Positions 12,568-13,792 of a stretch of 41,110 nt of DNA are shown here, one piece after another. The notes below the pieces were generated by a model. The model had not been told where the DNA came from, made no database searches, and was given only the letters and a program-made list of their open reading frames with translations. The stretch is from the NCBI RefSeq assembly GCF_003334315.1, contig NZ_QOWR01000045.1; one strand, given 5' to 3'. Every line of letters starts with the position of its first letter. Position 1 is the stretch's first letter. Source of the DNA: Escherichia coli (GTDB taxonomy: Bacteria; Pseudomonadota; Gammaproteobacteria; Enterobacterales; Enterobacteriaceae). Made by a program: the position numbers and the translations under genes.

Positions 12568-13792
12568 TTATGGTATTATATTCTGATAATGATTTGATAA
12601 GCGAATTCTGTTGCCAGATGGTATTTCTATTTCCACCCCATAATTTATATCTTTTTCATTAGGCAGATCTCTCTTTAAATAAAAGGGGTATGAAATCTTT
12701 TCGGGTTGAAGTGTCTCGTAATGAAATGCTATGAATTCATTTTTAGACATTGTTGCCCATTTTTGAATTTTATTGTATAGAGAGGGTGTTGTAAACTCTT
12801 GAAGTTGTTTATAACATATTTTTTTTGAACTCTTGCTTATATTTTAATATGTCATCAAATGAAAGACTCACTACCTTTGCCTCTAAGAAATCAATTATTC
12901 TCGAAGCAATTTCCGCTTTCGCGCGTAAAGAGTTGTCATTAATAGTTAACAATGTAGAAAACAAGCCATTGATTTGTTTGTCAAGATGCTGTTCATATTT
13001 ATGTAGTTTGGGGATGGGATTTTCCTTGTGTGAAAAAATAGTGTTAAATAAATTTGCGTCAGTGAAATTTATATTAAGTAGATCTTCAAAATAAAAATTT
13101 GATAAGGTTAGGACTAGCCTGGACATATCTTGCCCTGTCATGTTGAAATCAATAAAGTCGCATCCAGCAAGGGCTTCCATCCTATTTTCATTTTCACTGT
13201 GCTCAATATACAGCTTCGCCATTTTTAAGTACAAGCTTTGAATGTCTCTTATATCAGTTGGTAAGTCAGCTCGTTGCCCAGCAAAATTTTTATTATCGGA
13301 AGAAACGGTTTGAACACTGAATATTTCGGGTATTCCTTCTTCTACGAGAATTTTAGTTATGATTGGATTGTTGGGTTCTGGATTAACGACAACAATGATT
13401 TGACATACAGAATCCTTATCCTTTTCGTATCTAATGTTATGAATCTGATTAAGTATTGATTGTGTCTGTTGCGTAAGTGGTGTCGAACTTATCGTTTCAA
13501 TGTTATTAATAAGACTTACAAGTTGAACCACAACTTTTGAGTAGTCTGCATTTGTATATGTGGTGTTCGTGTGGCATGCATTAATTTGTTGGAGTTGTTG
13601 TTGCGCTAAATCAAATTGTTCAGGATTGTATCCTTCTCCAGAGAATGTGGAATTAATGGGTTGTTGTTCTTCCCAATTATCACAAGGCCACTTCGGTGTG
13701 TCTGGCGTTTTAACATTATCGGTATTTGTTGTGCAGTTATAAATATCGCCGTGATATGTATTTATTATACCTGGGGTAAAGTCAATTGACAT
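12568..13792 (-). pseudogene. yhiS: yhiS-like AT-rich gene encoding a Q/N/T-rich protein with a pentapeptide-repeat-like segment; split into 327-aa and 60-aa ORFs by a +1 frameshift at an A8 tract
   Basis: Two consecutive out-of-frame minus-strand ORFs (13792..12809 and 12750..12568). The second frame is open upstream through the A8 run at about 12819-12826 (minus-strand AAAAAAAA), so removing one A yields a continuous reading frame of about 407 codons. Position between arsC and slp matches where I remember yhiS. No IS element is present. Confidence 0.55.

Follow-up and report, generated by a model that had tools for sequence, protein, structure and literature searches.

yhiS is frameshifted at an A8 homopolymer in a widespread Escherichia coli lineage and is probably an inherited pseudogene

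The yhiS locus and its reading frames

The stretch of Escherichia coli DNA analyzed here, referred to as the window, is 41,110 nucleotides long. On its minus strand, positions 12568-13792 hold the yhiS locus in two pieces, namely an ORF of 327 codons plus stop (12809-13792, with the ATG at 13790-13792) followed by an ORF of 60 codons (12568-12750). The locus is strikingly poor in GC, with 33.8% for yhiS against 47.6% for the whole window and values of 31-36% across 12200-14200. A putative Shine-Dalgarno-like sequence, AAGGAA, can be recognized by eye on the minus strand at 13797-13802, with 4 nt between it and the start codon of yhiS.

The only A8 run of yhiS lies at 12819-12826 on the minus strand (gene nucleotides 967-974, read as T8 on the plus strand) and is the site of a +1 insertion. 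The in-frame state of this tract is A7, where AAA AAA ATA encodes K323, K324, and I325. Once a single A is removed in silico from the A8 run, the locus becomes one ORF of 1224 nt and 407 codons, ending with the stop codon at 12568-12570, and the repaired 407-aa protein exactly matches a database sequence; adding two A also restores the yhiS frame. As the allele stands, its product consists of residues 1-324 followed by N-M-L and a stop, and the last 83 residues are gone. The 3' part of the gene (12568-12818, minus strand), now out of frame, corresponds to residues 325-407 and includes the conserved C-terminus INYGVEIE..RIRLSNHYQNIIP. An earlier sequence-only reading of this DNA had described an AT-rich gene split at an eight-adenine run and had proposed that the loss of one A would restore roughly 407 codons. 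All these elements are present at that place on the minus strand, and the repair gives exactly 407 codons.

As neither ORF is interrupted in the window, the locus could be taken for two separate genes with products of 327 and 60 aa. This possibility, also raised as a check in the sequence-only reading, is refuted by orthologs with a single CDS. Indeed, the sampled genomes with an A7 tract have one continuous 407-codon CDS, the proteins of divergent alleles are all 407-410 aa long, and conservation continues over the junction between the two ORFs. Moreover, inspection by eye of the sequence upstream of the internal ATG at 12750, which opens the 60-codon ORF, revealed no Shine-Dalgarno-like ribosome-binding site.

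Scanning the locus for promoters and terminators gave results no better than those of shuffled sequences, and no RNA family of Rfam is found in or beside yhiS. Four matches above the Rfam gathering threshold are located elsewhere in the window, all on the minus strand and none near yhiS: GadY (1308-1421), ES205 (7200-7271), AgrB (18195-18278), and ES036 (27057-27097).

Identity of the gene and its neighborhood

The gene, previously called only yhiS-like, is the ortholog of yhiS (b3504). In close relatives and in MG1655 as here, it is flanked by the ars genes and by slp-dctR and marks an edge of the acid-fitness island, and its nucleotide sequence is 89.7% identical to that of K-12-derived strains over query nucleotides 1-852, the part that precedes the IS5 break. 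In close relatives, the gene order is arsB-arsC, a pair formed by a permease and an ArsR/SmtB-like regulator, yhiS, slp, dctR, yhiD, and hdeBA. In MG1655, yhiS stands at the same place; its annotation is that of a pseudogene, with one fragment on either side of IS5T/insH11. This strain was used as the K-12 reference instead of Origami2-DE3, in which the region is rearranged by engineering. The 407-410-aa proteins of Escherichia and Shigella share 71-100% amino acid identity, and one of them is named YhiS in UniRef.

Little has been published on this gene. It is mentioned as an uncharacterized pseudogene (PMC8170033, PMC6928379), and YdeO does not induce it, unlike the neighboring slp-dctR (PMC4222967). 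In K-12, H-NS/StpA are reported to bind the AT-rich yhiS region (bioRxiv 10.64898/2026.02.10.705075).

Two features of the surroundings vary among strains. The permease gene (a 337-aa ORF in the window; a 1002-nt CDS in RefSeq relatives) and the divergently oriented gene of an ArsR/SmtB-family regulator occupy positions 14372-15776, between arsC and yhiS. They are missing from MG1655 and ETEC1747, in which arsC runs directly into the upstream region of yhiS. Farther away, at ~18249 inside the AgrB match, the window lacks a block of ~230 bp that JNEC-KY203, SW071610, and 503025 have between dinQ and arsR. The difference looks like a change in the copy number of the agrA/agrB antisense-RNA repeat beside dinQ.

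An orphan protein with a pentapeptide-repeat-like segment

YhiS receives no family assignment from NCBIfam or PADLOC, and PHROGs gives nothing significant (best E-value 0.04). When 1.84 billion representatives were searched exhaustively with a profile, one full-length YhiS cluster at 50% identity and many fragments of it were retrieved, together with 17 distant matches restricted to residues ~180-330. By tblastn, no homolog was found in a phage collection, and in a plasmid collection the only matches are three records of 4.8-4.9 Mb (NZ_OL790696.1, NZ_CP141089.1, and NZ_CP134663.1), which are evidently misfiled E. coli chromosomes. The source names of YhiS sequences are exclusively Escherichia or Shigella, the 410-aa form including cryptic-clade Escherichia. 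As judged from these searches, yhiS is an orphan gene restricted to Escherichia and Shigella. A role as a type III effector of the PipB2 or EspX kind is not claimed here, the profile search having found no similarity to anything outside the repeat segment.

This segment covers residues 206-255 (13028-13177, minus strand) and comprises ~10 units, which would make ~2.5 coils if a beta-helix formed. Starting from L208, the residues L, F, or M occupy 10 consecutive positions spaced by five, and D or N precedes seven of them; at least eight tandem units in which D/N comes before a central L/F/M would be expected of a pentapeptide-repeat protein. The stretch quoted in the sequence-only reading belongs to this run. 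When the whole protein, or only its C-terminal part, was shuffled 20,000 times, a run longer than eight was never obtained.

Comparisons with known proteins point in the same direction. A profile search of the PDB returned five matches, all of them pentapeptide-repeat proteins including Rfr32 (2f3l), TL15, and QnrB1, the best being 2f3l with an E-value of 0.006; it performed better than the single-sequence search, which gave only marginal pentapeptide matches. The 17 distant matches of the exhaustive search are centered on residues 204-280, align over several stretches each, and reach an E-value of 9e-9, and the six that were inspected are multi-repeat pentapeptide proteins. With hhalign, two bona fide pentapeptide-repeat members align to residues 203-263 with 92% probability and 36-39% identity. 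The Pfam model PF00805, for its part, matches residues 237-255 only, with an i-E-value of 7.9 and a score of 6.6, and none of 14 alleles reaches E<=0.1. AlphaFold2 models of the full-length protein, built on the 14-allele alignment, and of residues 190-275 have pLDDT values too low to interpret (42.7 and 46.8, respectively).

The pentapeptide repeat proposed from the sequence therefore stands at the level of sequence, supported by its periodicity, the PDB profile, and hhalign, whereas the Pfam model does not recognize it; the beta-helix would be a candidate fold. The data support the presence in YhiS of a short module of ~10 pentapeptide-repeat-like units within an otherwise orphan protein, and YhiS may be described as having such a module missed by current domain libraries. 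This module would most plausibly serve as a protein-binding scaffold. The N-terminus of YhiS is polar and probably disordered, and the remainder is modeled, with low confidence, as a weakly predicted alpha/beta region and a helical C-terminal part.

Tract length in natural populations

The length of the tract was counted with exact 88-mers around it in complete E. coli genomes, 406 of 5,426 of which carry this allele. A7 is found in 323 complete genomes and A8 in 69, whereas A6 and A9 each occur in a single one. Comparing tract length across E. coli genomes, as had been suggested from the sequence, thus gives A7 as the majority state and A8 in 69 of the 406 allele carriers. An intact CDS is annotated in most of the sampled A7 genomes, such as the 1224-nt one encoding WP_000020615.1 in 25-06685 and Res13. 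In JNEC-KY203, PSS-13, EC6, and SW071610, RefSeq designates the 1225-nt A8 locus as "hypothetical protein, frameshifted". Among public contigs (NCBI, ENA, Logan), the exact truncated 327-aa protein is encoded by 599, and the exact repaired 407-aa protein by 23.

These counts bear on the possibility that the eighth A is an error of sequencing or assembly at a homopolymer, the true genome having A7 and an intact gene. Homopolymer errors do exist in the collection, as in the yhiS gene of SCU-308 with its many frameshifts at runs, and the A8 of the window itself rests on identity with other assemblies. However, one identical A8 88-mer recurs in the 69 complete genomes, which come from many laboratories, the contigs encoding the exact truncated protein are spread over several archives, and several A8 genomes match 20 kb of the window at 100% identity. 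A sequencing artifact, one of the causes put forward in the sequence-only reading, is therefore excluded as a general explanation, and it would be extremely improbable that the window is a case of it. For annotation, this means that the split ORFs are to be treated as one frameshifted yhiS pseudogene and that the A8 is not to be "corrected" as a sequencing error.

In SCU-308 (NZ_CP053281.1), the frameshifts of yhiS consist of an extra A or T in homopolymers, as is typical of uncorrected long-read assemblies, and this assembly is probably error-ridden. Because of this example, the A6 and A9 tracts, each known from one genome, have to be treated with caution and may be assembly errors.

Haplotypes and the history of the tract

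Haplotypes were compared over 20 kb (window positions 5000-25000). Among the best 60 matches, all with ~100% identity to the window, ~58 have A8, one has A7, and one has A9. The A8 haplotype is known from several countries on different continents, its sources being pigs, poultry, ducks, frogs, humans, and seawater. The sampled A7 genomes differ from the window by 65-148 SNPs per 16 kb, with the exception of LR-17-1, which has A7 and an intact CDS and differs by only 8 SNPs per 20 kb. As the 20-kb haplotype is almost the same in nearly every A8 carrier, the frameshift is inherited and fast switching is unlikely, and A8 is a stable, vertically inherited marker of one widespread E. coli lineage. 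A "fresh" pseudogenizing mutation had been considered from the sequence; the pseudogenizing part of this proposal holds, whereas the mutation is fresh only in a relative sense since it is common to pig, poultry, frog, human, and seawater isolates.

A SNP close to the tract makes it possible to follow this history further. At window position 12867, 41 bp from the tract, codon 309 (12866-12868, minus strand) has changed from AAT (Asn) to AGT (Ser), a lineage-specific substitution at a residue that is Asn in all of 14 diverse alleles, and this site was used together with the tract in a four-gamete test. Ser309 is combined with A8 in 62 complete genomes and with A7 in one complete genome (LR-17-1) and 23 contigs, while Asn309 is combined with A8 in nine complete genomes and with A7 in ~320. 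A8 and Ser309 together can serve as a marker for a widespread E. coli lineage. As all four combinations exist, the tract cannot have changed only once unless one recombination event took place; otherwise, at least two tract changes are required. At least two changes among haplotypes that are >99.9% identical would make the tract a mutational hot spot.

The most economical history would begin with a change from A7 to A8 on the Asn309 background. Asn309 would then have given way to Ser in a gene that was broken by that time, in keeping with relaxed constraint, and a reversion from A8 to A7 would have led to the LR-17-1 type. Alternatives to such a reversion are two independent insertions or a recombination junction within the 41 bp.

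This evidence is also what has to be set against slipped-strand phase variation, in which the A tract would act as a reversible contingency switch turning YhiS on and off. Tract length does toggle the frame, A7 being in frame and A8 out of frame, and A6, A7, A8, and A9 are all found among complete genomes. The failure of the four-gamete test in haplotypes differing by <0.1% and the compatibility of the Ser309-A7 sequences with a return from A8 to A7 would fit such a switch as well. However, the lone A6 and A9 genomes are the doubtful ones discussed above in the light of SCU-308, and the dominance of A8 among the best 60 haplotypes across hosts and continents indicates a stably inherited state. 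A7 is found in 80% of the genomes with this allele, and the tract is confined to one minority allele class. E. coli is proficient in mismatch repair, and runs of seven or eight A are short for a contingency locus. The gene has been lost irreversibly through IS elements and deletions too, which speaks for decay rather than regulation. Phase variation, another of the explanations offered from the sequence, is thus quite unlikely: A8 carriers belong to one near-identical haplotype and A7 dominates elsewhere, even though the tract has changed more than once. The population pattern is best read as rare tract changes followed by clonal spread rather than as rapid switching.

Between slp and dctR, three SNPs that all fall in a 19-bp interval (window 11693-11711) separate the window-like haplotypes, i.e., the A8 carriers and LR-17-1, from the other sampled A7 haplotypes. 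This cluster suggests a small recombination patch.

Allele classes, repeated inactivation, and coding constraint

The tract belongs to only one of the forms in which yhiS exists. Strain A31 matches the window exactly on either side of a stretch of ~850 bp (12600-13450), within which it diverges by 12-21%. This hyper-divergent cassette spans about codons 115-400 and is bounded by sharp recombination junctions. The dS between the two main allele classes is ~0.3 overall and ~0.4 in the divergent part; the Slp and permease proteins encoded beside yhiS are identical across strains. According to these values, yhiS has two old allele classes, and junctions of recombination lie both within the gene and at its 3' end. 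The window carries the minority class, the only one with the A7/A8 tract: the tract codons encode KKI (AAA AAA ATA) in this class, whereas other alleles encode QKQ or QKE (CAA AAA CAA or GAA).

Besides the A8 frameshift, several other lesions affect yhiS. The gene is interrupted by IS5 in K-12 and by IS1, on top of A8, in QL57EC. A31 and ETEC1747 have lost a C after a T6 run, and in 2017-19-1CC an A5 run has become A4. CD306 and a sizeable share of genomes keep only 5' remnants of ~380-480 nt, and at least 80% of the yhiS query is covered in only 4001 of 5415 genomes. The gene has been inactivated independently many times, by at least six different lesions.

Estimates of dN/dS for yhiS are 0.2-0.4, and between the main allele classes they are 0.3-0.43 in all regions. 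Such values indicate moderate purifying selection rather than neutral drift, so that intact yhiS was a real protein. The A8 product is devoid of the strongly conserved C-terminal tail, and for this reason the 327-aa product is probably non-functional, as far as its sequence allows us to infer.

The dimorphism and the tract may be combined in another way, with yhiS as a dimorphic, recombining, Escherichia-specific pentapeptide-repeat protein under balancing selection, in which A7/A8 would form a slow reversible switch, possibly leaky through transcriptional slippage. Should this be the case, the pattern would fit a factor involved in host interaction or in conflict, but we consider the proposal unlikely.

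Possible recoding at the A8 run

A frameshift in the DNA could still be compensated during expression. RNA polymerase slippage yielding one A fewer in the transcript, or +1 ribosomal slippage, would restore full-length YhiS in a fraction of the products. ORFs disrupted at A/T runs can be restored in mRNA, and some bacteria slip productively on eight A (Baranov et al. 2005, PMC1088944). The abundance of the A8 lineage, with 599 contigs where its A7 counterpart has 23, could also be read along these lines, and it means in any case that the lesion is clearly not costly. On the other side, a run of 8 nt is shorter than the 9 nt from which many genomes show evident selection against slippage (PMC1088944). 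Slippage sites are expected to combine at least nine A/T with a conserved shifted arrangement; here the run has 8 nt and the frameshifted arrangement is not conserved, in-frame A7 being the rule with 323 of 406 genomes. Furthermore, the change of Asn309 is nearly confined to the A8 background (62 of the 63 complete genomes with Ser309), as expected under relaxed constraint. Recoding on this scale is therefore very unlikely. The A8 run could nonetheless permit the synthesis of a little full-length protein by transcriptional slippage, and "pseudogene" may thus not mean zero function.

A probable inherited pseudogene

Taken as a whole, the evidence makes it very probable that yhiS in this lineage is an inherited pseudogene, produced by replication slippage from A7 to A8 in a dispensable orphan gene. 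Replication slippage, which we infer as the mutational mechanism, would have added one A to the A7 run at codons K323-K324-I325. The shifted frame stops three codons further on, giving the 327-aa product without the conserved last 83 residues. Of the three causes that the sequence-only reading had proposed for the broken frame, the pseudogenizing frameshift is the one that is supported.

The frameshift by itself is ordinary and now explained. The allele dimorphism and the repeated independent inactivation are the most curious aspects of yhiS, which offers a clear case of an AT-rich orphan gene combining two very old allele classes with recurrent loss.

Comparison with known systems

Pentapeptide-repeat proteins (PF00805), such as Rfr32 (2f3l), TL15 (3n90), and QnrB1 (2xtw), are built of tandem [x][D/N][L/F/M]xx units like those found in YhiS. 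In contrast to these proteins, YhiS has only ~10 units in a protein of 407 aa, and its Pfam match is not significant. AlphaFold2 gives no beta-helix for it in low-confidence models, and YhiS has no link to gyrase protection or to the other known functions of the family.

Homopolymer-driven phase-variable genes of Neisseria, Haemophilus, and Campylobacter are known as contingency loci. With these loci, yhiS shares a mononucleotide run within the ORF that sets the frame and a length polymorphism in the population. It differs from them by its short A run, by a host proficient in mismatch repair, and by a state that is stably inherited across a widespread clone. In addition, the tract is missing from most alleles, and the gene is lost by irreversible routes too.

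Transcriptional slippage can rescue pseudogenes that contain poly(A) runs (Baranov et al. 2005, PMC1088944), as with tssM of Citrobacter rodentium (PMC4256274). In yhiS as in these pseudogenes, the frameshift lies exactly in a run of A on the sense strand, whereas the run has eight nucleotides rather than at least nine and the shifted arrangement is not conserved; a rescue of yhiS is only conjectural.

A close counterpart is yhiS of K-12 MG1655 (b3504, UniProt P37635). Its allele is of the other class and owes its split to IS5T/insH11, whereas the gene of the window is broken by a frameshift, and K-12 is devoid of the permease and ArsR/SmtB-like pair that stands upstream of yhiS in the window. 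Nevertheless, both genes occupy the same locus, and both are pseudogenes.
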